Below are positions 3,337 to 55,070 of a stretch of DNA of 55,929 nt, piece by piece. How positions within the stretch are numbered: position 1 is the stretch's first letter; every line of letters begins with the position of its first letter. This stretch comes from Minisyncoccota bacterium. GTDB lineage: Bacteria; Patescibacteriota; Minisyncoccia; Phycocordibacterales; UBA9973. The DNA is taken from positions 1-55,929 of the forward strand of contig JAGOUX010000004.1 of NCBI GenBank assembly GCA_018061035.1, written 5' to 3'. Under the pieces are notes generated by a model that was not told where the DNA came from, did not search any database, and saw only the letters and a program-made list of their open reading frames with translations. The translations under genes were made by a program, and so were the position numbers.

Positions 3337-3378
3337 GGTTACATGTTCTTAGCAATTTAGCGAAATAGAGGAGGACAC

Positions 3379-3819
3379 ATGAACAATAAGATCGAAGGCG
3401 AGGATTTGTTTGGCGGTTTGGATCTTGCGCGCGCCGTGTACCCGAGCATGCAGTCCGCACGGACGGGCCTGACACTCGACAACCTGGAGAAGTGGCAACA
3501 CGACCTCCAGAAACAGGAGGGACTCGACGGCCATCTCCTGCTCGAAGCGTTCGATCGCAAGCGCGGCATCGAGAGCTCAGCGAGCTTCGCCGATGTGGAG
3601 GTGTTGTGCGCACGGCACAGCGTCGATGGATTGTTTGCGCGTCTGCGTATTGGCCCCGGGGACATCCTCGGTCTCCCTAAATCAGCGTTCGTGACCGATG
3701 ACGGCATCAAGATGCCGGCACTCGCTCGTCTCGAAGCGGGCGTTGTTCCCATCATCATCCCGCTCGACGCCAAGACCAAACTCGGCGCCAACGTGTCGTT
3801 CCTCCGCCTCAACAGCTAG
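3379..3819 (+). CDS. hypothetical protein, G+C-rich cassette ORF A1
   Basis: GAGGAGG lies 4 nt before the ATG. A TTGACA-type promoter is upstream and the 85-bp hairpin/terminator module is downstream. No family recognised. Confidence 0.6.
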   Translation: MNNKIEGEDLFGGLDLARAVYPSMQSARTGLTLDNLEKWQHDLQKQEGLDGHLLLEAFDRKRGIESSASFADVEVLCARHSVDGLFARLRIGPGDILGLPKSAFVTDDGIKMPALARLEAGVVPIIIPLDAKTKLGANVSFLRLNS

Positions 3820-3828
3820 CCGACGCCT

Positions 3829-3913
3829 CGCCAACCACTTGCATGTGGATGGCGCAGAAATAGCGTCATTCATATGCAAGTGGACCAAGATTTATTCTTG
3901 TCCACTTGTTTTT
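3829..3913 (+). repeat. 85-bp module, copy 1 (long imperfect hairpin plus terminator hairpin)
   Basis: By reading, identical to 4556..4640. Stem CCACTTGCAT/ATGCAAGTGG, then AAGTGGAC..GTCCACTT followed by a T-run. Confidence 0.9.
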
Positions 3914-3917
3914 TTTA

Positions 3918-3946
3918 TTGACAAAAATATTTAAAGTAGTATTAAT
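3918..3946 (+). promoter_or_regulatory. cassette promoter A2
   Basis: TTGACA (3918-3923), 17 nt, ATTAAT (3941-3946). Confidence 0.55.
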
Positions 3947-3974
3947 AATGTAATATTTGCCCTTTACATAAAGC

Positions 3975-4026
3975 GAGGGTCACAGCTAAAAGATTCTAGA
4001 TCCGGAGTTTTTTAGCTATGACCCTC
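3975..4026 (+). other. 17-bp-stem hairpin in the 5' UTR of cassette ORF A2
   Basis: GAGGGTCACAGCTAAAA pairs with TTTTAGCTATGACCCTC with one mismatch. The loop contains TCTAGA. Confidence 0.7.
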
Positions 4027-4057
4027 ATGTCGACGGTCTAGCCTTGTTGGAGGCACT

Positions 4058-4549
4058 ATGCGGAATATGGAAAAGTTGTTTTCCGTACGCGAAGTCGCTT
4101 TCCCCGCTTGGGCAGCGGGGCGCCAGTTGTTCGAGGTTGGCCCGTCCCGTCGAGGCATTTCCTTTTCGGAGGTCGCCAAGATCGAGTGGGTGCCGGTGGA
4201 AGATGATATCTTCCCTGGAGAAGTCGTCGTCGAATTCGTTCAAGGCCGGGATCCCAACAAATTCCTCGGCCTGGCGGAGATGTGCGCCATGAAGTCGCAC
4301 TGGTTGGCGCTGTGGTCGGCGCTCAATCTCGAAGATCACGATGTGCTCGCTTTCCCGCGTGACATCGTGAAAGACAAAGACTGCTTCCTCGTCACCCCGG
4401 CGCTTGTCCGTCGGATGGTGCCGACGAGTGAGAAAGACTCGAATAGCGCGACGATCTGTGTGCCGCAGGTCCAGCGGTTCTGGACGCGGTTGAACGGAAA
4501 CAATAAGTTTAACAAGCGGCTCAAGATCGCCATGTTCAAGACACGCTGA
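4058..4549 (+). CDS. hypothetical protein, G+C-rich cassette ORF A2
   Basis: GGAGG lies 4 nt before the ATG. The promoter resembles that of A1, and an identical 85-bp module follows the stop. No family recognised. Confidence 0.6.
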   Translation: MRNMEKLFSVREVAFPAWAAGRQLFEVGPSRRGISFSEVAKIEWVPVEDDIFPGEVVVEFVQGRDPNKFLGLAEMCAMKSHWLALWSALNLEDHDVLAFPRDIVKDKDCFLVTPALVRRMVPTSEKDSNSATICVPQVQRFWTRLNGNNKFNKRLKIAMFKTR

Positions 4550-4555
4550 AGCGTG

Positions 4556-4640
4556 CGCCAACCACTTGCATGTGGATGGCGCAGAAATAGCGTCATTCAT
4601 ATGCAAGTGGACCAAGATTTATTCTTGTCCACTTGTTTTT
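4556..4640 (+). repeat. 85-bp module, copy 2
   Basis: Same 85 nt as 3829..3913, located directly after the stop of ORF A2. Confidence 0.9.
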
Positions 4641-13497: not shown

Positions 13498-13932
13498 ATG
13501 TTCGAATTGTACGTTGCAATACTGGGTAGCAGCACGATCTTGGCTGTCGTCATGGCCCTCGTGGTGATCTACCTCGAAATAACCAAGGGTCTGAGCGGCC
13601 TTGCCGTCGCAGTCAACAAGCTTGTGGGGAGCAAGAACCTCATCATGCTTGAGCTGTATGGCTACGCGACGTTATTCTCGTGGATCGCCTTGGCCATTCC
13701 GTGGATTGACCTCTTTACGATTTCGAAGTGGGCGCATTTCGAGAACCACAACCTGCGAACCTACTTCGGGCTGATCTCGAACAACGACGCGAACTTCTAT
13801 CTTTTCGCTGTGTTCTTCGGAGTTCTTGGCTCCAAGGCGGCGTTGGCGTTCATTGATCTGGCAAAGCTTCTGCGCAAGGGTCGGGTCAAGTGCACACCAC
13901 ATGGTCCGTTCGTGTCGTGGAGCCCAGAATAA
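13498..13932 (+). CDS. hypothetical membrane protein, G+C-rich cassette ORF B
   Basis: AAGGAG lies 5 nt before the ATG. The protein has about four hydrophobic segments. An AT-rich promoter region lies upstream and a hairpin plus T-run downstream. Confidence 0.55.
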   Translation: MFELYVAILGSSTILAVVMALVVIYLEITKGLSGLAVAVNKLVGSKNLIMLELYGYATLFSWIALAIPWIDLFTISKWAHFENHNLRTYFGLISNNDANFYLFAVFFGVLGSKAALAFIDLAKLLRKGRVKCTPHGPFVSWSPE

Positions 13933-14019
13933 ATTCTGCACACATGGCGGGTGAGACAAAAGTAAGTTGTTTCGCCCACCAGTAATAAAACGCCGCTCGG
14001 CGTATCTCCGAGCAATAGA

Positions 14020-14058
14020 AAGCCAGGACACCGAAAGGAAATATGTCACTGGCTTTTT
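14020..14058 (+). terminator. terminator of cassette B, related to the module-family terminator
   Basis: GAAAGCCAGGACACCGAAAGGAAATATGTCACTGGCTTTTT resembles GAAAGCCAGCAACACTCGAAAGGAGGAAATGTTGCTGGCTTTTT at 49961-50005. Confidence 0.7.
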
Positions 14059-14111
14059 AAATTTCTAATATTTTTTGGACCTGTCCGCCTCTAGCGGGAG
14101 GGGTCTTTTTA

Positions 14112-23139: not shown

Positions 23140-23670
23140 CTACTTATTGAAACTTTGAAGGAATATATCCTTCGAAATCTCGTCCACATTATCTGTGGTT
23201 ATTATTATCATCTCTGTGGTGAGGCCGAGGTCTTTTTTGATGTTGGTGAAGAGGTGCTCGAAAGGGAACGGTGAGATCCATGCAGAATTCTTGAGGCAGA
23301 CGAAGCCTGCTTTTTTGAGAAGGTAGCGGAGGCTTTCGCGCTCGGCTTTACGAGCTTCCGGTAGGTCGAGGAGGATGATTCTCCATAGGCCGTCCCAGGA
23401 GGTGTTGACCATGGCTGTGTCGCTATCTAGGGCTAGGCTGTGGACCTTCTTTTTGCCTTCTTTGGTCAGGCGGGCGTATTGATTTTGAGGGGAGGCCACT
23501 TGCTCTATCAGACCAGCATCCCGAAGGCCTTTTAATGAGCGTGTAATGGCGTACTTGGGGTTCTTTTGGTCAGAATGAGTATTGACCTTATCAGCCAATT
23601 CAGGCAGGGAAATGGCCTGTTTTTGGCCCAGTACGCGTAATATTTTTTTTGAATAATCGTTGTTTTTCAT
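23140..23670 (-). CDS. winged-helix regulator with PaaX-C-like domain (tentative)
   Basis: N-terminal wHTH-like segment (ISLPELADKV...ITRSLKGLRDAGLIE). C-terminal WDGLWRIILLDLPE..R..LRYLLKKAGF..L..SAWISP resembles the PaaX family. Confidence 0.45.
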   Translation of the reverse strand: MKNNDYSKKILRVLGQKQAISLPELADKVNTHSDQKNPKYAITRSLKGLRDAGLIEQVASPQNQYARLTKEGKKKVHSLALDSDTAMVNTSWDGLWRIILLDLPEARKAERESLRYLLKKAGFVCLKNSAWISPFPFEHLFTNIKKDLGLTTEMIIITTDNVDEISKDIFLQSFNK

Positions 23671-27019: not shown

Positions 27020-27496
27020 TTAAATTTCCTTAAGTAAATCCTCAAGATCAAGAGGCTCTGTGACCATTTCTACTAGGCCATCGTTTGAGACTTTCCATGT
27101 TGACCTTGGGCGGTCGACGTAGAGCTCTACGCCTATGCCGTCTGGATCGTTTAGATAAATTGCTTCGGATACTCCGTGGTCGGCTGTTCCGGTGATCGGA
27201 TAGTTTGCTTCCATGAGGCGCTTTAGTATGAGCGCGAGTTCGCGGCGGGTTGGGAAGAGGATTGCGTGGTGGTAGATGCCGGTGTGGCCAGCTGGTGGCG
27301 GCGTTGCGCCTTTGCCTGCCCAAGTGTTGAGCCCGATGTGGTGATGATAGCCTCCGGCAGAGAGGAAGACGGCGGATGCGCCGTAGCGGGCGGTGACTTC
27401 AAATCCGAGAATGTCGCGGTAAAAAGCGAGCGAGCGATCAAGATCGCCGACTGTCAGGTGCACATGTCCTATCTGTACGTCTTTATGTATTGGCAT
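27020..27496 (-). CDS. VOC family protein (glyoxalase/extradiol dioxygenase fold), G+C-rich
   Basis: IGHVHLTVGDLDRSLAFYRDILGFEV...HHIGLNTW. ATG 27496 lies 2 nt after the stop of the upstream gene. Confidence 0.8.
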   Translation of the reverse strand: MPIHKDVQIGHVHLTVGDLDRSLAFYRDILGFEVTARYGASAVFLSAGGYHHHIGLNTWAGKGATPPPAGHTGIYHHAILFPTRRELALILKRLMEANYPITGTADHGVSEAIYLNDPDGIGVELYVDRPRSTWKVSNDGLVEMVTEPLDLEDLLKEI

Positions 27497-27498
27497 AT

Positions 27499-27738
27499 TT
27501 ATATTTTCTTTAGGAATTCGGTTCTGAGAACTAGACCTTTCATGCCTTCTGCATTGCATTCTACCAATTCCTCGTCACCTGTGAGGCGGATGTTTTTGAT
27601 TTTAGTTCCTTGTTTTAGGGTGCTAGAAGTCCCTTTGACTTTAAGATCTTTGATGATGATGACGCTGTCACCACTAGCGAGTATATTGCCATGTGCATCC
27701 TTGGTTATCACTTCTTCTTCCGTATCTTCATTTTCCAT
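27499..27738 (-). CDS. PhnA/YjdM C-terminal-domain protein
   Basis: GDSVIIIKDLKVKGTSSTLKQGTKIKNIRL...LRTEFLKKI matches the YjdM C-terminal domain. The N-terminal Zn ribbon is absent. Confidence 0.8.
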   Translation of the reverse strand: MENEDTEEEVITKDAHGNILASGDSVIIIKDLKVKGTSSTLKQGTKIKNIRLTGDEELVECNAEGMKGLVLRTEFLKKI

Positions 27739-28741: not shown

Positions 28742-28851
28742 CGCGCTAAAGTAATTTATGAAATAACAAAACCCCGTCGCTTAGGGCTTCGGGGTTCATG
28801 CTTGTTGATTGTGGCGAACGGAGCGCGGGTGCTCCGTTCGCTTTTGGTGGC

Positions 28852-29136
28852 TTACTTCATGAAGAAGATGATTGACTTGAGTGCGGCGATGTCAATCTCC
28901 AGCTTGGTCTCCTTGGAAAAGGTTGAGACTCCGAGATGGGGGCAGGGATCCACCTTGCCTTCACACTCGGGACAGTCGCCCGCTGTCTTGAATATTTCGA
29001 TCTTTGCCAGCTCGATCTCATCACAGTTCTCAACGAGTTCGAGGAGCTTTTCCCACACAGCGCTTATGTCAGCAGAAGTGTGGACCGTTTTCTTGGTCGT
29101 GACGACTACCTCAAACCTTGCAACGCTTCCTGCCAT
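28852..29136 (-). CDS. hypothetical small protein, G+C-enriched cassette ORF D1
   Basis: GGAGGAGG lies 5 nt before the ATG on the minus strand. Contains CPECEGKVDPCPH. Two hairpins and a T-run lie downstream. Confidence 0.5.
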   Translation of the reverse strand: MAGSVARFEVVVTTKKTVHTSADISAVWEKLLELVENCDEIELAKIEIFKTAGDCPECEGKVDPCPHLGVSTFSKETKLEIDIAALKSIIFFMK

Positions 29137-29221
29137 GGCTTCCTCCTCCCAGGATGTCTGGGGTACATAGTCACATACAAATTACCACGTTTTGTGGAAA
29201 AGTAAATACCTATAGTGGCTC

Positions 29222-29249
29222 TTGCAGTTAATTTAAAATATTGTATAAC
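29222..29249 (+). promoter_or_regulatory. cassette promoter for the DUF397 ORF
   Basis: TTGCAG, 16 nt, TG-TATAAC. Confidence 0.45.
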
Positions 29250-29309
29250 TTAAGTGTAAGCTCATCCGCTCGGGTAGCCAACCCCGGGAGAAAGGAGACC
29301 AAAAAGTAG

Positions 29310-29543
29310 ATGGCAAACGGCGCGCGTAAACCCTTTACGTTCCCTGTCACTGACGGGGACTTCGTAAAGTCGAGTTACAGCAACCCGGGCGGCCTGATCT
29401 CGACGTGTGTCGAGGTCGCGGTCAAACCTGAAGGCGTCGCGGTGCGTGACAGCAAGGCAACCAACGGTCCTGTGCTGTACTTCACCCACGACGAGTTCGT
29501 GGCGTTCAAGAAGGGCGTCGCGGCCGGCGAGTTCGGCGGCTGA
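29310..29543 (+). CDS. DUF397 domain protein, G+C-rich cassette ORF D2
   Basis: VKSSYSNPGGLISTCVEVAV..GVAVRDSKATNGPVLYFTHDEFVAFKKGVAAGEF matches the DUF397 pattern (SSYS..G.CVEVA...V.VRDSK...GP.L.F....W..F). Confidence 0.75.
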   Translation: MANGARKPFTFPVTDGDFVKSSYSNPGGLISTCVEVAVKPEGVAVRDSKATNGPVLYFTHDEFVAFKKGVAAGEFGG

Positions 29544-30189: not shown

Positions 30190-30585
30190 ATGAACCAACG
30201 CGACAAGCATCTTGCGGACTGTATTCGCAAGGGCTTTGCCCACAACGATGTATATACGAAAAACGGGCGCTGGTCCATCACCAATGGACACGTCTGGGAA
30301 AGCACTTCTGCTGCCGGCCTTGCCTTGGTCGACTTGCTCGGAGTCGAGGCTGCTGTCCGGCTTCTGTGGTCGGTATCCCTCGAAAAGGACAAGCCCAAGG
30401 GGAAGACGGAAGAGGCGAGTCAGTTGCTCGGGCTCACCGTCTCGGAGTATTTGGCTCTCGAAGAGCACTCAGAAGTGCTCTCGCCGGCCCAGATCGCCGA
30501 CTTGCTCGAATCGGGCTGGTTCCCGTTTGAGCCGGACGCCATCGAGTACGTCGCAGGTTTGAGATACGACGATTGGTCGTTCTGA
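30190..30585 (+). CDS. hypothetical protein, G+C-rich cassette ORF E
   Basis: ACGGAGG lies 5 nt before the ATG. Promoter is TTGATT-N16-CATAAT, and a strong terminator sits at 30603..30638. Confidence 0.55.
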   Translation: MNQRDKHLADCIRKGFAHNDVYTKNGRWSITNGHVWESTSAAGLALVDLLGVEAAVRLLWSVSLEKDKPKGKTEEASQLLGLTVSEYLALEEHSEVLSPAQIADLLESGWFPFEPDAIEYVAGLRYDDWSF

Positions 30586-30602
30586 TCTTGCAATCATTCA
30601 TC

Positions 30603-30638
30603 AACAGGCCGGCGAGCAAATGCTCTCCGGCCTGTTTT
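30603..30638 (+). terminator. terminator after cassette ORF E
   Basis: AACAGGCCGG..CCGGCCTGTT plus TT. Confidence 0.8.
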
Positions 30639-30645
30639 AAATTTA

Positions 30646-47868: not shown

Positions 47869-48078
47869 ATGCCGTTGGATAAGCAAGTGTCTACTGAAGC
47901 AGTATCGCAGGTAAGTGGTTCTTACGAAACGGTTGGTGTGGGTGCCCATACTTTCATTCGCACGAGCCGTGAAGATAGTTCTGTTCTCGAGTGTCTGACT
48001 TGCGAGAAAAAAGGCACTGTAGAGCAGCTCGAAATCGAGCCATGTGAGTCGAAAGGTTCTCGGCGCGCTGGCTGGTAA
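47869..48078 (+). CDS. hypothetical small protein, cassette region F ORF1
   Basis: GGAGG lies 4 nt before the ATG. G+C-enriched. Contains CLTCEKK. Confidence 0.45.
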   Translation: MPLDKQVSTEAVSQVSGSYETVGVGAHTFIRTSREDSSVLECLTCEKKGTVEQLEIEPCESKGSRRAGW

Positions 48079-48107
48079 CAACTTCATCTTGAAAGGAGGT
48101 GATAATC

Positions 48108-48218
48108 ATGGTTCGTAACTGGATTGCTGCGGATGGGGACGGAAGTTCAACTCTAGCGCCTTGGCCTTACAAACATCGGCCAGGCAAGGTTCTCAAGTCG
48201 AAGGAGCCCAAGAAGTAA
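48108..48218 (+). CDS. hypothetical 36-aa peptide, cassette region F ORF2
   Basis: Hand translation gives MVRNWIAADGDGSSTLAPWPYKHRPGKVLKSKEPKK. AAAGGAGGTG lies 7 nt before the ATG, and a GC-rich hairpin follows at 48245..48272. Confidence 0.4.
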   Translation: MVRNWIAADGDGSSTLAPWPYKHRPGKVLKSKEPKK

Positions 48219-48244
48219 TACGGGCTTTATGCAAATCGTTTGGG

Positions 48245-48272
48245 GCGTCGCGTGTGGGATATCACGCGGCGC
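48245..48272 (+). terminator. GC-rich hairpin after region-F ORF2
   Basis: GCGTCGCGTG-loop-CACGCGGCGC. The T-run is weak. Confidence 0.5.
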
Positions 48273-48291
48273 TTCCCAAATTTCTTTACAC

Positions 48292-48319
48292 TTGCATTAT
48301 TTTATATTTACGCTATATT
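48292..48319 (+). promoter_or_regulatory. promoter upstream of leader copy L1
   Basis: TTGCAT (48292-97), 16 nt, TATATT (48314-19). Confidence 0.45.
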
Positions 48320-48394
48320 AAAAATGTGAACAGATTACAAGCAAACATTATCGTCGTCGACCTGAAGGGCTTCTTTTTTAAGAAGTACTCTTTC

Positions 48395-48510
48395 ATTTAG
48401 AAGACTGATGCTTGCGCTGTAACAACTCTCAAACAAACTACAACCCAAACACCAGCCTTCTAAAGTAAGACTGGTTTTTACTTTATCGGGTGTGGGTGTT
48501 CTTTCATCAA
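48395..48510 (+). ncRNA. structured 5' leader, copy L1 (candidate attenuator/riboswitch-like element)
   Basis: About 115 nt alignable to 49004..49125. Terminator hairpin CCAGCCTTC..GACTGG plus T-run (48452-48479). Upstream TTAGAAGACTG can pair with CAGCCTTCTAA. Confidence 0.55.
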
Positions 48511-48523
48511 CGGAGGCAAGCAT

Positions 48524-48844
48524 ATGCGAGGAAATACGGGCAAGGATCACGGTTCCAGCAATCCCGGATTTTTTGGTGGCTCTGATCATGGAGACACCGA
48601 GGGTTATGCCGAGATTGCTCGGCGAATCCGCGAAGCGGGGTCTGCGCAACCAGTGCAGACATCGGTCGAGAGCCCCAGGCTCGCGATGGTTCATGATCCC
48701 TTCGAGCTGCCGGAGACGGGGTCGCATCAGGCGTATACCAATCCGTGCTCGGAAAATTACGTTGCCACGGCCGCCAAGCCGCCACAGCGTGTCGTCGAGC
48801 GAGTGCCCTTTCGTATGAGTTCCAATCTCTCACGCAGAGACTAG
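48524..48844 (+). CDS. hypothetical protein, cassette region F ORF3
   Basis: ACGGAGG lies 7 nt before ATG 48524, so this frame is preferred over the overlapping 48492..48818 and antisense frames. A 13-bp-stem hairpin follows the stop. Confidence 0.5.
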   Translation: MRGNTGKDHGSSNPGFFGGSDHGDTEGYAEIARRIREAGSAQPVQTSVESPRLAMVHDPFELPETGSHQAYTNPCSENYVATAAKPPQRVVERVPFRMSSNLSRRD

Positions 48845-48857
48845 GGCTCAATCGGTC

Positions 48858-48889
48858 AGCGCCGCGTGTCCATCATGACACGCGGCGCT
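48858..48889 (+). terminator. GC-rich hairpin after region-F ORF3, sequence-related to 48245..48272
   Basis: AGCGCCGCGTGTC-loop-GACACGCGGCGCT (13-bp stem). Confidence 0.55.
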
Positions 48890-49003
48890 ACCAAAACTTA
48901 ATTTCGAAATAATTAATACATTACAAATAATTTATATATGTCATTATATGAAAGTGAATAAAAACCGACAGGAAATTAATAATGTTTTCTTTTTCAGCCC
49001 TCA

Positions 49004-49125
49004 ATTTAGAAGGCTGATCTTTGTGCTGTAAAAATAAACTCTCAAAAACGAACTACAACCCAAACACCAGCCCTCTAAAGGGGCTTTTCCTTTTTTAGGC
49101 GGTGTGGGGTTCTTTTTGTTCGTCG
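49004..49125 (+). ncRNA. structured 5' leader, copy L2
   Basis: Shares ATTTAGAAGnCTGAT...CTCAAA..ACTACAACCCAAACACCAGCC with L1. Terminator AGCCCTCTAAAGGGGCT plus T-run (49069-49096). Confidence 0.55.
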
Positions 49126-49152
49126 AAAACCAAATAGAGAGGATGTGAGGAA

Positions 49153-49521
49153 ATGAGACTTCCAGTGTTTCAAAAGTTGTTCTTTGTCGTGGATCATTCC
49201 GGAAGCTGTGGTGGAACTAGTGATGGCGGACGCAATCCAAGAAAAAGAAACAAGAAAGAGGTTGCTGAGAGAAATGCCGAAAAAGCAGCCGACGCCTTTT
49301 TCAATGCTCAGAATGACGTCGTTCGCGTGCAGAAAGAATTGGAAAACGCGAACGAGCACTACTGGAACACATTTTGGAGCATGAAGAAGTTTTGGGGAGG
49401 TAATCTCGTTGAGGCGGCTATGATGGTCGATGAGATGGAGAATAATTTGGTCACTGCTAGGGAGGTTTTGGCATCAGCCAGAGTCGCCGCTATCGCCGCC
49501 GCCAAAGTCGCGAAGGTGTGA
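49153..49521 (+). CDS. hypothetical coiled-coil-like protein, cassette region F ORF4
   Basis: Preceded by the second copy of the structured leader. TGAGGAA lies directly before the ATG. The C-terminal half is Ala/Glu-rich. Confidence 0.5.
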   Translation: MRLPVFQKLFFVVDHSGSCGGTSDGGRNPRKRNKKEVAERNAEKAADAFFNAQNDVVRVQKELENANEHYWNTFWSMKKFWGGNLVEAAMMVDEMENNLVTAREVLASARVAAIAAAKVAKV

Positions 49522-49664
49522 AAGATTCCATTGATTAGGTTTTGAGCTAAGAGATTGGTGGGATTGAGAGTTTGTGAAAACTCTACAAAAATTCACAGGT
49601 GATGGGGTCTACCTATCAAGTGGCTCTTAATGAAGTTCTTTGGAGGACGAAAGGAGGTGATGAA

Positions 49665-49928
49665 ATGATTCCTCAGAGTAGCTACTGGTTTGGTCCTGAC
49701 GACGAGCCACAAGGTGAACCACAACCCAAAAGTGACGCTCCGAAACTCGAGAATTTCTTCGATTTTCTCGACGAAGTTCTGCGGGGGCTGGTGCGGATGC
49801 CTGAAGGGGTGTTGGTGCACAACTCACACGAGTACTCACTGGAGCGACGACGGTGCAATACCTGCGATGCCGACGGCGAAAACCTCCAACAGCATTGCGT
49901 CGGCATTTGGCCGACCTTCGGCAACTAA
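49665..49928 (+). CDS. hypothetical small protein, cassette region F ORF5
   Basis: AAAGGAGGTG lies 6 nt before ATG 49665, the same SD context as ORF2. Followed by the 3' module 49936..50005. Confidence 0.5.
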   Translation: MIPQSSYWFGPDDEPQGEPQPKSDAPKLENFFDFLDEVLRGLVRMPEGVLVHNSHEYSLERRRCNTCDADGENLQQHCVGIWPTFGN

Positions 49929-49935
49929 TAGCAAC

Positions 49936-50005
49936 AGGTGTAGATCCTGATCACTCTACAGAAAGCCAGCAACACTCGAAAGGAGGAAATGTTGCTGGCT
50001 TTTTA
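49936..50005 (+). repeat. 3' module family, copy F (small hairpin plus terminator)
   Basis: AGGTGTAGATCCTGATCACTCTACAGAAAGCCAGCAACACTC...TGTTGCTGGCTTTTT. Confidence 0.8.
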
Positions 50006-50025
50006 TATTGTGTTAATATGTATTT

Positions 50026-50252
50026 AGAGCCGTTGAGCCAGCTGACACTGGGGAGGTAAAGGAAGACCCTTCGACTTTGCTCAGGGCAAGATCGAAGATG
50101 TAGAACCTTTCGGGTAAGCCCGTTAAAGCTGTAATGAAGTATCCTCCTTCGCTAAAGCTATGGAGGACAAGAAGTAGGGTGGCACCGCGAAATATCGCCC
50201 CTGCAAATTTATCAGATTAAAAGATAAGTTTGGAGAGGCGATTTTTTGTTTT
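50026..50252 (+). promoter_or_regulatory. T-box leader upstream of aspS
   Basis: AAGTAGGGTGGCACCGCG (50172-50189) matches the T-box consensus AANNNGGGTGGNACCGCG. AGAG..GTTGA near the 5' end is GA-motif-like. A terminator helix ATCGCC(50194-99)/GGCGAT(50237-42) is followed by a T-run. A GAC (Asp) candidate specifier lies at 50065-50067. Confidence 0.8.
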
Positions 50253-50266
50253 CTCCACAGTAAATT

Positions 50267-51652
50267 ATGAAAAACAGAATATATATAAAAGATCTTAAGG
50301 GAAGTATTGGGCAAGAAGTAATTATTGCCGGATGGGTGGATGTGCGTCGAGACCAAGGCAAAATGGTCTTCTTTGATATGCGAGATATGACTGGCAAGGT
50401 GCAATGCGTGACCCTACCAATTCATCCCGAAGCAATAGCTAGTGCAAAGGAAATCAGGCCAGAGTGGGTGCTGATCGTAAAAGGCATAGTGAAGGCTCGC
50501 ACTGATAAAAACGCAGAAGCTGGTGGTGGTGTCGAGATTGAGGTTACAGGTATAGAAGTACTAAATAAAGCAGAGACCACTCCTTTTCAGATCACCGAAT
50601 CTACATCAGGCATCAACGAGGATTTGAGAATGAAATATAAGTATCTTGATCTCCGCACAGAGCGAATGCAGAAGAATATTCGTATGCGAGACAAGATTAT
50701 CACCTTTTTCCGCAAATACATGCACGACAATGATTTTATCGAAATTGAAACACCAATATTAATGAAGGGAACTCCGGAAGGTTCTCGTGAGTATGTAGTA
50801 CCTTCTCGAATTTTCAACGGACAGTTTTATGTGTTGCCTCAATCTCCTCAGCAGTTCAAACAGCTTTCTATGGTGGCTGGTTTTGAAAAGTATTTCCAAA
50901 TCGCTCGCTGTATGCGTGACGAAGACACACGAGGTGATAGACAGCCGGAATTCACCCAGCTCGACTTCGAGATGTCATTCGTAACTCAAGAAGAAGTTCT
51001 TGAATATACAGAAGCGATGTTCATTGAACTCGTAAAGACCGTGTACCCAGAGAAAAAGATAACTCAGATTCCTTTTCCAAGAATTTCATACGCTGAATCT
51101 ATGGAGAAGTATGGATCAGACAAGCCGGACATGCGAGTGAATAAGGAAGATCCGAATGAGCTTGCTTTTGCATGGGTTCTAGATTTCCCAATGTTTGAAA
51201 AGACAGATGATGGCGAGCTTCAGGCAGTGCATCATCCATTTTGCTCTATCAAAGAGGAGGACAAGGCCAAGTTTATGAGTGGGGAGGATATGTTTTCAAT
51301 TCGTGCCAATGCTTATGATCTAGTATTAAACGGCTACGAACTTTCTTCAGGATCTATTCGTATCCACGAGCGAGAAGTACAAAAGAGAGTATTCGAATTA
51401 TTGAAAATCAGCGAGGAAGTACAGCAGGCAAAATTTGGCCACATGCTCGAAGCATTTACTTTTGGCGCACCTCCACACGGAGGCTTCGCTCCCGGTATTG
51501 ATCGTATTGTTATGATCCTCCAAAACGAGCCAAACATTCGTGAAGTCATAGCCTTCCCAAAGACAGGTGAAGGTAGAGACCTTATGATGGGTGCTCCAGC
51601 TCCAATCACTGACAAACAGCTTAAAGAGCTCGGAATTAAACTCGGCAAATAA
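50267..51652 (+). CDS. aspS: aspartate--tRNA ligase, compact (461 aa)
   Basis: OB-fold N-terminus, QSPQQFKQL, class II motifs (FQIARCMRDED, GGFAPGIDR). Confidence 0.93.
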   Translation: MKNRIYIKDLKGSIGQEVIIAGWVDVRRDQGKMVFFDMRDMTGKVQCVTLPIHPEAIASAKEIRPEWVLIVKGIVKARTDKNAEAGGGVEIEVTGIEVLNKAETTPFQITESTSGINEDLRMKYKYLDLRTERMQKNIRMRDKIITFFRKYMHDNDFIEIETPILMKGTPEGSREYVVPSRIFNGQFYVLPQSPQQFKQLSMVAGFEKYFQIARCMRDEDTRGDRQPEFTQLDFEMSFVTQEEVLEYTEAMFIELVKTVYPEKKITQIPFPRISYAESMEKYGSDKPDMRVNKEDPNELAFAWVLDFPMFEKTDDGELQAVHHPFCSIKEEDKAKFMSGEDMFSIRANAYDLVLNGYELSSGSIRIHEREVQKRVFELLKISEEVQQAKFGHMLEAFTFGAPPHGGFAPGIDRIVMILQNEPNIREVIAFPKTGEGRDLMMGAPAPITDKQLKELGIKLGK

Positions 51653-51982
51653 ATGAATTCTGTAATCTCAGGCATTGTGGTGCGGGGGGATGGATACGGT
51701 AGGAAGCTTGGATTTCCAACGGTAAATTTAGAGACCAATATTACTGAATTTCCTCCTAAGGGAGTATATGCTGGAACTGCAGAGCTAGAAGGTGTGGAAT
51801 ATAGAGCAGGTATAATCATCGGCCCCCACAACAAGACTGAAGCCCATCTCATAGGGTACAACGGAGATGCATATGGCAAAGAAGTGATACTAACTTTGAA
51901 AAAATTCTTGCGAGAATATAAAAACTTCGATACAGAAGAGCAACTTATAAATCAAATTAAAGAGGATATAAAATTATGTTAA
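51653..51982 (+). CDS. riboflavin kinase domain protein
   Basis: GIVVRGDGYGRKLGFPTVNL...GVYAG...EAHLIGYNGDAYGKEV. Confidence 0.7.
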   Translation: MNSVISGIVVRGDGYGRKLGFPTVNLETNITEFPPKGVYAGTAELEGVEYRAGIIIGPHNKTEAHLIGYNGDAYGKEVILTLKKFLREYKNFDTEEQLINQIKEDIKLC

Positions 51983-52884
51983 GAAAATTATCATTTTCTG
52001 GTCCACTACTTATTATTGTTGCTGCGCTCTTGTGGGCTTTTGATGGGCTTATCCGTCAGCACTTATATTCTCTGCCTCCAATTACGATTATTTTCTTTGA
52101 GCATTTGATCGGACTTTTCATTCTTCTCCCTTTTGCATTGCCATATGTATTTAAGGCTAAGATCGAAAAGAAGGAATGGTGGCTCATTGTACTTTTGTCT
52201 GTATTGAGTGGAGTTTTGGGAACTCTGTGGTTCACTACCGCACTCGGCAAGGTAAATTATATTTCCCTATCGGTAGTGTTCTTGCTTCAAAAGCTTCAAC
52301 CATTGTTCGCTATTAGTACCGCTATATTTTTCTTAAAAGAAAAATTCGAGAAAAAATATTTAATCTGGGCTCCGGTAGCTATCATCGCGGCATTTCTTGT
52401 TACATTCAAAAATGGAATTGTGGATCTTTCGACTGGTGAGGGTACAGCTATCGCAGCATTGTATGCTCTTGGTGCAGCATTTGCTTGGGGATCATCTACG
52501 ACATTTTCTAAAATGCTTCTCACTAAAGTGCGTTCGGAAGTAAGCATGTTTTATAGATTTGTCTTCACTTTGGTATTGTCATTTATTCTTCTCGTGACCT
52601 TTGGTCATAGCGCTAGTCTATTTGAGCCTACATTGTCTCAACTTGGATTCTTTGCACTAATAGGTATATCTACAGGTATGGTGGCATTGCTTATCTATTA
52701 CAAAGGTCTGGCCAAGACATCCGTGCATATCTCTACCATCCTAGAGCTAACATTCCCATTCATTGCGATATTTATTGATATGAAAGTAAATCACACAACG
52801 CTATCATTGACCCAATGGCTAGCGGCATTTGTGTTGGTGTTTAGTATTTACCAGATTGCTCGATTGCGAGAAAGTCAGGCATAA
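51976..52884 (+). CDS. DMT-superfamily (EamA-like) transporter
   Basis: About ten hydrophobic helices in two similar halves. Confidence 0.7.
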   Translation: MLRKLSFSGPLLIIVAALLWAFDGLIRQHLYSLPPITIIFFEHLIGLFILLPFALPYVFKAKIEKKEWWLIVLLSVLSGVLGTLWFTTALGKVNYISLSVVFLLQKLQPLFAISTAIFFLKEKFEKKYLIWAPVAIIAAFLVTFKNGIVDLSTGEGTAIAALYALGAAFAWGSSTTFSKMLLTKVRSEVSMFYRFVFTLVLSFILLVTFGHSASLFEPTLSQLGFFALIGISTGMVALLIYYKGLAKTSVHISTILELTFPFIAIFIDMKVNHTTLSLTQWLAAFVLVFSIYQIARLRESQA

Positions 52885-52887
52885 ACG

Positions 52888-52957
52888 AAAAATACCAGCG
52901 AAAGGGACTCTGTGAGAGTGTTGCTGGTATTTTGGAGAGTGATTAGGATCTCCACCT
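52888..52957 (-). repeat. 3' module family, copy G1 (after the AstE-like gene)
   Basis: The minus strand reads AGGTGGAGATCCTAATCACTCTCCAAAATACCAGCAACACTC...CGCTGGTATTTTT. Confidence 0.8.
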
Positions 52958-52971
52958 AGTACTTTCGGCCG

Positions 52972-53802
52972 CTAGCAATAGCAACCGAAATAAAATGCTT
53001 CTTTCCCGACTCCATCACAGTCGTCTGCGAAGAGGATGAGCCCATCCTTCTTCGCGGTGACTTCAACATCGCCGTCGTGGCCGATGATTTCACCCTTGTT
53101 TACGGGCTCGAAATCTTTCCACTCCCGTGCGCGTTTGAACCCGCTCGCGGTTGTGTGGTAGATTTCTTCGATCTGAACTCGCTCCTTGGAGATGATATCC
53201 ATCTCATCTTCCACAAGAGTGATGTGTCCTCGAGCATGAAGGAAGCCGAAAATTGCAAGGGAGGCCTTTGACACTACGCTTGGGTCCTCGTGATGTCCGC
53301 ACTCGACACAGACACCGATTCTGCCTGCCCGATTCATGTACTCGTCGGTTCCACCAGGACAGACCTGGTCAAAACCCGAGACGATAATTTCGACAGGAAG
53401 TTTCTCGGCGATGAATATGCCGTTCTGTTCGCAGATTGCGAATGGCTTGCTTTCAGGCGTGTCGCTCGAGTGGATATCGAGTAGTGCACCGGCCTCGTCG
53501 AGATAAGACTTCAAGTACCCAGCGCGGTGGTACTCGTAGGTGTGTTTGTGCCACTCATAGTATGCGCTCGGCGCCATGAACGCGCGGTTCAGGTCGAATT
53601 CTGTAAAGCGCATGTTTTTGGCGACGGCGTTGGGGTTGCCCACGACGAGAAAAACCGTGCCCCATTCAATCTTGAGCCCATCTTGCACAAAGAGCTCCTC
53701 AAACGCTTGAAGCCCACAAGGTTCATTGCCGTGGACTCCAGCCAGGATTACGCTTGTTGGGCCCGGCATGGACCCTGTAATCCTTATGACTTCTTCTCTC
53801 AT
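52972..53802 (-). CDS. succinylglutamate desuccinylase/aspartoacylase (AstE/AspA, M14-like) family protein, G+C-rich
   Basis: ILAGVHGNEPCG, DLNRAF, LLDIHS, VECGHH motifs. Own promoter TTGTCT-N17-TATATT on the minus strand, with the 3' module downstream. Confidence 0.75.
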   Translation of the reverse strand: MREEVIRITGSMPGPTSVILAGVHGNEPCGLQAFEELFVQDGLKIEWGTVFLVVGNPNAVAKNMRFTEFDLNRAFMAPSAYYEWHKHTYEYHRAGYLKSYLDEAGALLDIHSSDTPESKPFAICEQNGIFIAEKLPVEIIVSGFDQVCPGGTDEYMNRAGRIGVCVECGHHEDPSVVSKASLAIFGFLHARGHITLVEDEMDIISKERVQIEEIYHTTASGFKRAREWKDFEPVNKGEIIGHDGDVEVTAKKDGLILFADDCDGVGKEAFYFGCYC

Positions 53803-53882
53803 CGGTCACTACCTTTCTCAAATAACAGAATATTAGCTTTAATATAGATTATTTAGTGCCTAAAGACAAGTTTATTTATAAG

Positions 53883-53891
53883 TGGTATAAT
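53883..53891 (+). promoter_or_regulatory. extended -10 box, leaderless-type (PCD)
   Basis: TGGTATAAT, 8 nt, ATG 53900. Confidence 0.5.
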
Positions 53892-53899
53892 ATAGAAAT

Positions 53900-54232
53900 A
53901 TGAATAATGATTTATTGCAGAAAAAATGTGTGCCGTGCGAAGGGGGAGTAGCCCCACTCGTGCAGATAGAGGCCGAGGCTTTTATGAAATGGGTAGATGG
54001 TTGGACGCTAAGTGTAGACAATAAAAAGATCAGCAAAGAGTATAAATTTAATGATTTTAAAGATGCGATGGTGTTTGTGAACAAAGTAGCCGATGTCGCC
54101 AATGCCGAAGACCACCATCCAGATATTTATATCTACTACAACAAAGTAAAACTCGAGCTCACCACACATGCGATAAATGGCCTGTCTCAAAATGACTTCA
54201 TCGTGGCTGCAAAGGTGGACGCTGTAAATTAA
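53900..54232 (+). CDS. 4a-hydroxytetrahydrobiopterin dehydratase (PCD/DCoH)
   Basis: CVPCEGG...W....FKDAMVFVNKVADVANAEDHHPDI...V.LELTTH. Confidence 0.85.
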   Translation: MNNDLLQKKCVPCEGGVAPLVQIEAEAFMKWVDGWTLSVDNKKISKEYKFNDFKDAMVFVNKVADVANAEDHHPDIYIYYNKVKLELTTHAINGLSQNDFIVAAKVDAVN

Positions 54233-54298
54233 AAAACCGGTCAACATATCTCCTTTGAGTGTTGCCGGTTTTCTGGAGAGCGATCAGGATCTCCACCT
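54233..54298 (-). repeat. 3' module family, copy G2 (after the 80-aa ORF; also terminates the PCD gene on the plus strand)
   Basis: The minus strand reads AGGTGGAGATCCTGATCGCTCTCCAGAAAACCGGCAACACTC...GACCGGTTTTTT. Confidence 0.8.
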
Positions 54299-54323
54299 GT
54301 TGCGTTACTTGTGCGCCTTTGCA

Positions 54324-54566
54324 CTAATGAATCGAGTCCGTTCTGTTAGAGATGTAATTTGGGTTTTTCTTTTTATATTCTTCCAAAAACTTCCACTCTT
54401 GCGCGATTCTCTTGTCTCGAGTAATCTTGGAAGTTTTGTTGCACCACTTACACCATGAGACTGGACCTTTTCTTTCGTTTTTCTTTGGATATATCCATTC
54501 GTGTGTCCCTCTGATGGACTTCAAGCATTTCCATCTCTCAACGATTTTCTCTTTATTGGCCATCAT
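54324..54566 (-). CDS. hypothetical Lys-rich small protein (weak call)
   Basis: An 80-aa ORF with WCKWC and no clear SD. Its stop is followed by the same 3' module as the AstE-like gene. Confidence 0.35.
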   Translation of the reverse strand: MMANKEKIVERWKCLKSIRGTHEWIYPKKNERKGPVSWCKWCNKTSKITRDKRIAQEWKFLEEYKKKNPNYISNRTDSIH

Positions 54567-54653
54567 TCTTCAAAGAACAATGAGTTCTGCACAACGCAAA
54601 ACCCCTTCCGAAGTTTTCAACTTGGGAAGGGGTTATTTTCGAAAATAAATATA

Positions 54654-55025
54654 TTATGTATTCAAAGACAATCCTTTCCTAAGTTTGGAATGGTTGCTGT
54701 GATGATTTGATAAGCGCGACAATACAAGTCGGTACCCGCCAAGGGAACCTTTTAGCCATTTGGATATGCGTGCGATGGTTGCCGATGAGAGGCCAGTGCT
54801 TTCTATAATCGAGTTATACTGAACATCTCGAGATAACAGGGAAGCAGCCTCGAGTCTGTTTGCAAATTCTGAAATTTCGGCCATTGTCATGAGGTCACGA
54901 AAAAAGTTCTCTACCTCTATGGGGTTCTCTAGTTTTAGAATTGCATTTATGAGCTGGGAATTCTTCTTTGTTGTCCAGTCCACTTCAGTACCAATGTTTT
55001 CAGTTTTAATAATTTTTTCTTGCAT
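54654..55025 (-). CDS. TrpR-family (YerC/YecD-like) DNA-binding protein, second copy
   Basis: FFRDLMTMAEISEFANRLEAASLL...STGLSSATIARISKWLKG. Confidence 0.75.
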   Translation of the reverse strand: MQEKIIKTENIGTEVDWTTKKNSQLINAILKLENPIEVENFFRDLMTMAEISEFANRLEAASLLSRDVQYNSIIESTGLSSATIARISKWLKGSLGGYRLVLSRLSNHHSNHSKLRKGLSLNT

Positions 55026-55028
55026 GAC

Positions 55029-55070
55029 TATACTTTATCAAACTAAAGTACTTTAGTCAACTAAAGTAAC
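55029..55070. promoter_or_regulatory. tandem overlapping inverted repeats with the same half-site (candidate operator array)
   Basis: TACTTTATCAAACTAAAGTACTTTAGTCAACTAAAGTA. Half-site TACTTTAG/CTAAAGTA, as at 27786..27811. Overlaps the -10 of the divergent TrpR-like gene. Confidence 0.65.

Follow-up and report, generated by a model that had tools for sequence, protein, structure and literature searches.

The 55,929-nt stretch of a Minisyncoccota bacterium analysed here (contig JAGOUX010000004.1, hereafter the window) carries a structured element, the 3′ module, directly behind unrelated open reading frames (ORFs), in three full copies and one partial copy in 56 kb. Comparison with related genomes suggests that the module is an undescribed family restricted to Nomurabacteria, with a pseudoknot core, and that together with a conserved 5′ leader it encloses variable cargo. 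In kind it belongs to a known class, the terminator-associated structured RNAs at gene 3′ ends. With moderate confidence, we read it as a cis-acting structured RNA, a 3′ untranslated region (UTR) plus terminator that may act as the ‘3′ cap’ of accessory or recently placed genes in Nomurabacteria. The comparisons establish the family, its helices and strand, its position after ORFs, and the insertion or replacement context of these ORFs.

The module is built from two short interleaved helices, S1 (CAGG/CCUG) and S2 (GGAGA/UCUCC), in the order S1a-S2a-S1b-loop-S2b, followed by a long hairpin, H2, and usually a U-run. A 29-mer consensus, with up to three mismatches allowed, matches the window only at 49936-49964 (+), 52929-52957 (−), and 54270-54298 (−), and has no match in 100 shuffles. 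These are the places and strands at which a sequence-only reading of the window had put three copies, here called F, G1, and G2. Their full extents, and that of the partial relative, with scores from covariance models R1 and R2, are as follows:

49929-50011 (+): module copy F (R1 101.7 bits); S1a CAGG 49935-49938; S2a TGTAGA 49939-49944; S1b CCTG 49946-49949; loop ATCAC 49950-49954; S2b TCTACA 49955-49960; A-rich linker 49961-49964; long hairpin H2 49965-49999, apex CTC-GAAAG-GAG; U-run 50000-50004.
52882-52964 (−): module copy G1 (R1 91.5 bits); S1a TAGG 52958-52955; S2a TGGAGA 52954-52949; S1b CCTA 52947-52944; S2b TCTCCA 52938-52933; H2 52928-52894; U-run 52893-52888.
54224-54305 (−): module copy G2 (R1 87.9 bits); S1a CAGG 54299-54296; S2a TGGAGA 54295-54290; S1b CCTG 54288-54285; S2b TCTCCA 54279-54274; H2 54269-54236; U-run 54235-54230.
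13993-14065 (+): partial relative, ‘cassette B’ (R1 20.3 bits, R2 26.8 bits); hairpin H0, GCTCGG/CCGAGC, 13995-14013, joined directly to an H2-type terminator at about 14019-14058, apex CC-GAAA-GG.

The three full copies span less than 4.4 kb, and each starts 0-18 nt past the stop codon of a different ORF. Their pairwise identity is only 68-80% over the whole module, so they are not recent duplicates. Copies G1 and G2 both lie between convergent genes, G1 between EamA (ends 52884) and an AstE-like gene (ends 52972), and G2 between the Pterin-4a dehydratase gene (ends 54232) and an orphan ORF (54324-54566). The sequence-only reading had regarded the terminator of cassette B as a diverged relative. 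The relationship is true, at 20-27 bits, but partial, as copy B retains H0 and the H2 terminator and the middle pseudoknot part is missing. The H0 consensus of copy B recurs in other genomes, where a fuller form of the module is seen. In this form, the stop codon is followed after 2-6 nt by H0 (ACGC-GCUCGG-CGyuAUC-CCGAGC), then AACAGG, 1-2 nt, GAGA, (A)UCCUGAUCA(A)C, UCUC, an A-rich linker, and H2, which reads GCCAGC...CC-GAAA-GG-AG(N)AAA...GCUGGC, with an A-rich 3′ bulge and usually a U-run. In the window copies H0 is reduced, and in F a GCCGA/UCGGC hairpin sits within the end of the ORF:

49908-49920 (+): H0-like hairpin GCCGA-CCT-TCGGC, overlapped by the last codons of the ORF at 49602-49928.

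Its position before ...GCAAC...AGG suggests that it is the counterpart of the H0 (GCTCGG...CCGAGC) that precedes AACAGG elsewhere. A terminator elsewhere in the window, after the high-GC ORF 30190-30585 (30577-30639, +), reads CAACAGGCCGG...CCGGCCTGTTTT, with the AACAGG...CCUG motif reused as the base of its stem. It is a weak covariance-model match (14 bits) and may be a degenerate relative of the module.

Both interleaved helices are supported by compensatory changes. The first hairpin of the sequence-only reading is our S2, and the G-C to U-A change claimed for it is present, with TGTAGA/TCTACA in F and TGGAGA/TCTCCA in G1 and G2. That reading had taken other differences in G1 for loop or flank changes; in fact they form a compensatory C-G to U-A pair (CUAGG and CCUAAUC) in S1, a helix that it had not seen, so that G1 has UAGG/CCUA. 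Further variants of S1 are a double change in locus L124 (CAAG/CUUG) and one U·G pair in L021. A plain MAFFT alignment gives 97% pairing for S1 and two double changes, values equalled in 5 of 500 shuffles. The variants of S2 that stay paired include UGUAGA/UCUACA, GAGAA/UUCUC, UGAGAG/CUCUCA, UGAAA/UUUUG, GAGGG/CUCUC, and GGAGAGC/GCUCUUC, and double changes are found at all seven of its pairs in an alignment registered by hand. MAFFT misaligned the helices of the full modules, so covariance-model-based and hand-registered alignments were used instead. For S1 and S2 together in 18 sequences registered by hand, 97% of the cells pair and 9 of 11 pairs show double changes, which none of 500 shuffles equalled. 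The terminator stems also co-vary, as had been noticed from the letters alone, with three double changes among the four close copies, including A-U to G-C in G2. The total of four double changes in four close sequences was equalled by 2 of 500 shuffles. On the ORF-sense strand there are six G·U cells and one A·C, which favours an RNA structure on that strand.

The loop between the interleaved helices is near-invariant, AUCA(A)C. The order of S1 and S2 is that of an H-type pseudoknot, and the two would form either such a pseudoknot or two alternative hairpins. The loop lengths (L1 0-2 nt, L2 0-2 nt, L3 3-7 nt) look sterically compatible with simultaneous formation of S1 and S2, while the minimum-free-energy fold of F uses S1 alone. 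The folds of F, G1, and G2 have energies of −23 to −29 kcal/mol with z of −2.9 to −4.7 (−29 kcal/mol and z = −4.7 for F). The hairpin and T-run that had been reported to follow each copy are there, with H2 leading directly into T5-T6, so that all three have the stable G+C-rich hairpin and U-tract of an intrinsic terminator. A simple terminator scanner reports none of the module terminators because of its loop limit of 8 nt. In 1.76 Mb of related DNA, about 14 terminator-like sites combine the apex CYGAAAGG with a T-run, and every one of them is in a module-type unit. Rfam and tRNA scans of the window gave no matches at the gathering score. Rfam 15, run on five loci with full modules and leaders, gave none at E ≤ 0.05 and, at E ≤ 10, only chance-level terminator-like matches for module and leader. 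The module family is thus undescribed in Rfam 15, and literature searches turned up nothing on it.

The module is always 3′ of an ORF. For all 25 tabulated modules, an ORF of 48-278 aa on the same strand ends no more than 60 nt upstream. What follows is varied: in seven cases the leader of the next unit, at +121 to +190; behind G1, G2, and the L169 module a convergent gene end; behind F and its counterpart on L099 a T-box; and behind others a gene at +5 to +62. For a group that includes L105 and L124, the distance to this gene is +23 to +45. This heterogeneous downstream context is more easily squared with a 3′-end element than with 5′ regulation of the next gene. In L105 and L124, an extended −10 motif, TGnTAAAAT, stands between the module and the start codon of the aspartyl-tRNA synthetase (AspRS) gene. 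The sequence-only reading had offered a 3′-UTR RNA as one of its interpretations, and this agrees with the 25 of 25 modules on the strand of the upstream ORF, with the G·U wobbles on that strand, and with the hairpin and U-run in most copies.

The cargo in front of the modules includes orphans, trpE-trpG, chorismate mutase with prephenate dehydratase, a free threonyl-tRNA synthetase (ThrRS) editing domain, and AstE. Nearly all of 17 unit or high-GC ORFs are without a Pfam family. Purifying selection is clear for one cargo protein of 196/209 aa, whose substitutions at the three codon positions number 17/13/65. Many units occupy the interval from the genes for tryptophanyl-tRNA synthetase (TrpRS) or TrpR to AspRS. 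In L173 (1159-3246) and L178 (1935-4008), trpE-trpG (anthranilate synthase) lies in this interval, its GC exceeds the genome average, and the unit ends in the same 3′ module; the chorismate mutase and prephenate dehydratase are in a leader unit of L103. Such aromatic amino-acid genes are unusual cargo for genomes of the candidate phyla radiation (CPR).

How far does the family extend beyond the window? A covariance model from the four copies was used to search related genomes, a search that the sequence-only reading had proposed, and it did find homologues. There is one true copy on L013, a contig of a Joint Genome Institute metagenome with a different locus, and this is the closest relative of G2 (84%). 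Positions 1532-1614 of L099, from another assembly, hold the orthologue of F at the orthologous site, 96% identical and with the TGTAGA/TCTACA variant kept. Diverged copies were found by the model in L021, L027, L100, L103 (two), L105, L109, L112, L124, L130, L140, and L142. A scan with the module pattern added L169, L173, L178, and L192, all Nomurabacteria, and gave about 30 matches in other phyla, which is the chance number. Beyond L021 and L027, a dozen modules lie within 50 loci in the Genome Taxonomy Database (GTDB) that were retrieved with the leader as probe. Diverged forms are present in about 20 other Nomurabacteria loci, and about 25 copies, nearly all behind ORFs, in the 1.76 Mb. 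An independent NCBI contig (L003) has the same arrangement as the window over the part that holds G1 and G2. Exact-pattern scans gave only glycoside-hydrolase coding matches in GTDB genomes and only chance matches in IMG/VR, whereas in Joint Genome Institute metagenomes they retrieved a single true copy, that on L013. The INPHARED phages and PLSDB plasmids held no module match, and no terminal inverted repeats or target duplications were found in the flanks of the module. A loose 12-mer regular expression for the loop was too noisy to use.

The ORFs that the modules follow in the window are:

49599/49602-49928 (+): ORF upstream of F, 109/108 aa, G+C at third codon positions (GC3) 0.56.
52972-53802 (−): ORF upstream of G1, AstE/AspA-family deacylase (Pfam PF24827), GC3 0.62.
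54324-54566 (−): ORF upstream of G2, an 80-aa orphan, where relatives have their native AstE.

That the three are unrelated, as the sequence-only reading held, is borne out; the size of 87 aa that it gave for the first comes from an internal ATG at 49666, and the full ORF has 108/109 aa. The sole homologue of the 108-aa ORF is protein P0123 on L099, 92% identical. The substitutions between the two (6/4/8 by codon position) show no third-position excess, which fits a recent exchange better than long purifying selection. For the 80-aa orphan, no homologue was found among 5.8 billion proteins.

Relative to related genomes, these host genes behave as lineage-specific insertions or replacements. 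EamA and Pterin-4a, which are adjacent or overlapping in L020 and L022, are separated in the window by an insertion of AstE together with G1 (52885-53899). The AstE of L096 and L098 is low in GC and stands after Pterin-4a behind a promoter and 5′ UTR, so AstE belongs to this neighbourhood, and the region upstream of the 80-aa orphan (54564-54610) aligns with the region upstream of that AstE. The window thus has a high-GC, 54%-identical version of AstE at a new position, and the old AstE slot holds the orphan ORF. The label ‘cassette’ given to these units by the sequence-only reading therefore fits in the insertion and replacement context, but AstE is native to the neighbourhood, and cargo elsewhere includes ordinary metabolic genes such as trpE-trpG and prephenate dehydratase. 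We rejected the idea that AstE is a foreign, for example actinobacterial, gene, since its homologues are Patescibacteria proteins and it is a neighbourhood gene in L096 and L098. Nor did we keep the idea of a universal insertion hotspot between EamA and Pterin, because the gaps in AspRS synteny of 80 related genomes hold ordinary low-GC genes, among them those for riboflavin and lumazine synthase and phosphoribosyl pyrophosphate (PRPP) synthase, and not cassettes.

For the F unit, nucleotide identity between the window and L099 is 91% in the leader, 94% in the ORF, and 96% in the module, against only 63% for flavokinase (protein), 66% for EamA (nucleotide), and 39% for AspRS (protein) in the flanks. 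It would follow that the F unit moves or is unusually conserved. On L099 the order is leader, two ORFs, module, and T-box, and the tract of similarity continues past the module through the T-box into the 5′ end of AspRS. Homologous recombination would account for this more readily than an insertion specific to the module site. The AspRS genes themselves (window 50267-51652, compared with L099 2004-3344, L105, L114, and L124) occur in this clade in two forms that are only about 39% identical overall and nearly identical over about 80 N-terminal residues (MKNRIYIKDLK...GKMVFFDMRDMTG), with 78% identity in the first 245 nt; this suggests a mosaic gene or recurrent recombination at the AspRS 5′ end. 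The T-box leader (RF00230) upstream of AspRS (50024-50205, +) scores 45 bits vs a gathering score of 93. It carries the T-box sequence GGGUGGCACCGCG and is conserved in L099.

The leader with which the F-ending unit begins, and a second copy nearby, are located as follows:

49005-49150 (+): 5′ leader of the F-ending unit, a long imperfect hairpin (TTAGAAGGCTGAT...ACACCAGCCCTCTAA).
48400-48520 (+): second leader copy, preceding the ORF 48524-48844.

The 3′ arm of the first leader can alternatively join a hairpin and U-run (49069-49095). The unit with the second copy ends in an unrelated terminator. The 50 GTDB loci with the leader all belong to Nomurabacteria/Paceibacterota, and a genome has several of them. 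The leader is highly conserved, about 75-110 nt long, and forms a long imperfect hairpin, TTAGAAGGCTGATnTTTGYGCTGTAA ... TTACAACCCAAACACCAGCCYTCTAA, whose 3′ arm ACACCAGCC has an alternative pairing partner further downstream in GGCTGGTGT, after which comes a T-run; this makes the leader look like an attenuator. Its other positions include L021 6995-7075 and 7560-7640, L020, L025, L027, L034, L099 680-800, and L100-L149. Its mismatches are A·C on the + strand and would be G·U on the − strand, which leaves the transcribed strand ambiguous.

Other features of the region were noted beside these. The relatives of its AspRS identify the window as chromosomal DNA of a Candidatus Nomurabacteria (Patescibacteria) member. 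By Pfam annotation, the window holds mainly housekeeping genes (among others aminoacyl-tRNA synthetases, ribosomal proteins, DnaK/J/GrpE, DnaB, and RecR), with interspersed ORFs of GC3 0.52-0.78 vs about 0.35-0.40 for the genome. High-GC ORFs lie at 3357-4615, 13498-13932, 23140-23670, 27020-27559, 28802-29543, 30190-30585, 47869-49928, and 52972-53802. They include a DUF397 protein (29310-29543, GC 0.62), a PaaX-like regulator, and a glyoxalase, most are without a Pfam family, and their composition suggests widespread gene acquisition from higher-GC donors. A 32-nt hairpin, CAAGTGGACAAGAATAAATCTTGGTCCACTTG, is present in two identical copies (3877-3908 and 4604-4635, −) at the 5′ ends of the adjacent high-GC ORFs 3357-3812 (GC3 0.72) and 4025-4615 (GC3 0.58), and is a separate repeated 5′ module family. 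Extended −10 elements (TGnTAtAAT or TGnTAAAAT) stand only 10-25 nt before start codons in the window (53863-53891, +), L105, and L124, which implies very short 5′ UTRs for core genes. A conserved palindrome, ACTTTATCAAACTAAAGTnCTTTAGT... (window 55031-55068; L013 244-281; L096 3552-3588), is found upstream of the Trp-repressor-family gene 54654-55025 and also directly past the module on L013; it is probably an operator.

What, then, does the module do? As a 3′ cap, H2 with its U-run would terminate transcription, and between convergent genes the flanking A-run and U-run would let it do so both ways. Termination would insulate the core genes that are packed tightly around the module, together with the promoter often found behind it. 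The pseudoknot, with H0 upstream of it, may be a compact barrier to 3′-to-5′ decay or the docking site of a lineage-specific factor; either would explain why the loop and junction bases are near-invariant and the stems co-vary. The module would travel with its cargo when recombination exchanges units between lineages. These proposals for termination, for stabilization or factor binding, and for the route of spread are drawn from sequence comparison. Several points weigh against the 3′ cap. Most of the loci searched were picked for the leader or AspRS, so the association of the module with ‘accessory’ genes and with leaders is biased by sampling. The alignment of S2 was registered by hand to the helix, which favours structure, and the helix is weak in L178 and L192. 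In L109 and L130, H2 is kept and the U-run is lacking, so termination cannot be the sole role. Finally, invariant loops and co-varying stems beside a terminator would also fit a switch controlled by a ligand or protein.

The last point leads to a regulated attenuator, riboswitch-like or dependent on a protein or the ribosome, in which the pseudoknot would be the sensor and H2 the expression platform for read-through into the next gene, such as AspRS, PRPP synthase, or the next unit. The invariant loop and junction bases with co-varying stems before a terminator are typical of small pseudoknot aptamers. Modules stand 5-62 nt before a gene on the same strand in L021, L105, L109, L124, L178, and copy B, and a ribosome terminating at the stop codon 0-60 nt upstream could remodel H0 or S1. 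The cargo and neighbours are also related to amino acids (trpE/G, prephenate dehydratase, ThrRS editing domain, AspRS, TrpRS, and TrpR). However, we found no alternative anti-terminator pairing that overlaps H2, and G1, G2, and the L169 copy face convergent gene ends and so have nothing downstream to regulate. In L105 and L124 the promoter-like TGnTAAAAT intervenes between module and AspRS, AspRS is already under the control of a separate T-box in the window and L099, and no Rfam family matches the module even at E = 10. We regard an attenuator as unlikely. Still less probable, in our estimation, is a small RNA (sRNA) derived from the 3′ UTR, whereby the module would be cleaved from the mRNA or internally promoted to give a stable RNA of about 80-110 nt. 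The conserved single-stranded CCUGAUCAAC could be a seed or kissing-loop site (UGAUCA is self-complementary), the core of 12 nt is near-invariant, the terminator would be shared with the mRNA, and there are several paralogous copies per genome. Yet sites in the window complementary to the loop (GTTGATCAGGAT, up to two mismatches) number 6 against 5.6 expected, which is no enrichment, the ‘seed’ is partly paired in S1, and there is no known chaperone or target.

The sequence-only reading had also thought of recombination sites, and a DNA site of a gene-cassette system, attC-like or recognised by another hairpin-specific recombinase that inserts ORF plus module, does agree with the element being directly 3′ of unrelated ORFs that are insertions or replacements vs relatives, with cargo GC higher than that of the host, and with a unit far more alike between two lineages than its flanking genes. 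The details speak against it. Pfam scans of about 50 window ORFs gave no integrase, transposase, or other recombinase. The ends of the module, ACGCAAC, GAGCAAC, and GTTGCTG, do not fit RYYYAAC/GTTRRRY: in the test for R″ the 5′ ends ACGCAAC/GAGCAAC lack Y at the third or the second and third positions, and in that for R′ GTTGCTG on the 3′ arm lacks RRR. The copies are dispersed over both strands, and the opposite boundary of the cassettes lacks a partial site. The G·U wobbles point to RNA; unlike attC, the module keeps its sequence from genus to genus; and the tract that runs on from the module into T-box and AspRS fits ordinary homologous recombination. A site-specific system of this kind is thus very improbable. 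So, to a slightly greater degree, is a passive repeat, either a terminator that was duplicated locally or copied by gene conversion, or a selfish repeat resembling miniature inverted-repeat transposable elements or repetitive extragenic palindromic (REP) sequences, with a function limited to termination. The three window copies do lie within 4.4 kb, and G1 and G2 are direct repeats that flank AstE-Pterin, a layout that tandem duplication of [Pterin-module-AstE] followed by losses could yield. However, at 68-80% identity the pseudoknot core is kept by compensatory changes, G2 is closest to a copy at a different locus in another metagenome, and the family is conserved over many genomes at low copy number and lacks terminal inverted repeats and target duplications. 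This explanation is largely refuted by the cross-genome conservation and covariation; with copies outside the window and divergence between those within it, the local duplication that the sequence-only reading had named as a possible refutation does not account for the module. Further ideas were rejected since their features are not conserved across copies: a mini-ORF started from the terminator loop (GGAG resembling a Shine-Dalgarno sequence, plus AUG), whose AUG only about half of the copies have; base-pairing between the module and the 3′ end of 16S rRNA; a T-box-like UGGN bulge; and an anti-terminator formed with the repeated GCAAC.

The 3′ cap may be compared with known systems. Intrinsic bidirectional terminators likewise have a G+C-rich hairpin with an A-run before and a U-run after it, and occur after stop codons and between convergent genes. 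Unlike them, the module is conserved in sequence across unrelated genes and genera, its H2 has the CC-GAAA-GG apex and A-rich 3′ bulge with a covariation-supported pseudoknot-type element before it, and two members (L109 and L130) are without the U-run. The attC sites of integrons are, like the module, structured imperfect palindromes right after the stop codon of unrelated, often orphan, compositionally distinct ORFs. Unlike attC, the module has no R″/R′ core sites and no integrase among the Pfam-scanned window ORFs, its copies are separated by core genes and do not form an array of a single orientation, its primary sequence is conserved, and its wobble pairs point to RNA rather than folded single-stranded DNA. 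The pseudoknot aptamers preQ1-I, SAM-II, and guanidine-III are similar to the module in size (about 30 nt), in their two short interleaved co-varying helices and near-invariant loops, and in the adjacent terminator reached via an A-rich linker. They differ in that the module is at ORF 3′ ends, not in 5′ UTRs, in some copies has no downstream gene, and shows no switching helix and no match to an Rfam model. Repeats of the REP/BIME, ERIC, and Correia types are also palindromes repeated at gene 3′ ends and can stabilize mRNA or terminate transcription, whereas the module is low-copy, lacks terminal inverted repeats and target duplications, is kept at orthologous positions, and is paired in many units with a conserved 5′ leader.

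Phage ‘morons’ and the mobile regulatory promoter/stem-loop (PeSL) cassettes of T4-type phages are self-contained units with their own promoter and terminator, which deviate in GC and are inserted where relatives have neighbouring genes. Conserved non-coding modules flank their variable ORFs and can be recombination homology. The units described here share these features, but they are chromosomal in a CPR bacterium, with no phage or plasmid match in the collections searched, and their 3′ module is a complex structured RNA, not a simple stem-loop. A bolder proposal, to which we give little weight, is that leader and 3′ module together delimit an unrecognised system of exchangeable gene units in CPR bacteria. 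Foreign or relocated ORFs would be captured between standard structured ends that give regulated expression and insulation. When units move between lineages and loci, these ends would offer portable homology or be recognised by an unknown enzyme. Such a system would be integron-like in function and different in mechanism.

The genomes of CPR/Patescibacteria are tiny and densely packed, and to our knowledge almost nothing is known of their RNA-level regulation or of how they acquire and domesticate genes. Here, two non-coding motifs not described before, both supported by covariation, bracket variable and compositionally atypical cargo: a 3′ module of pseudoknot plus terminator, and a 5′ leader that resembles an attenuator. 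If the 3′ module is a standard cap that insulates and stabilizes newly placed genes, it would give a concrete handle on gene gain in reduced genomes, and it would also be a new RNA family for Rfam-type curation and for the analysis of metatranscriptomes.

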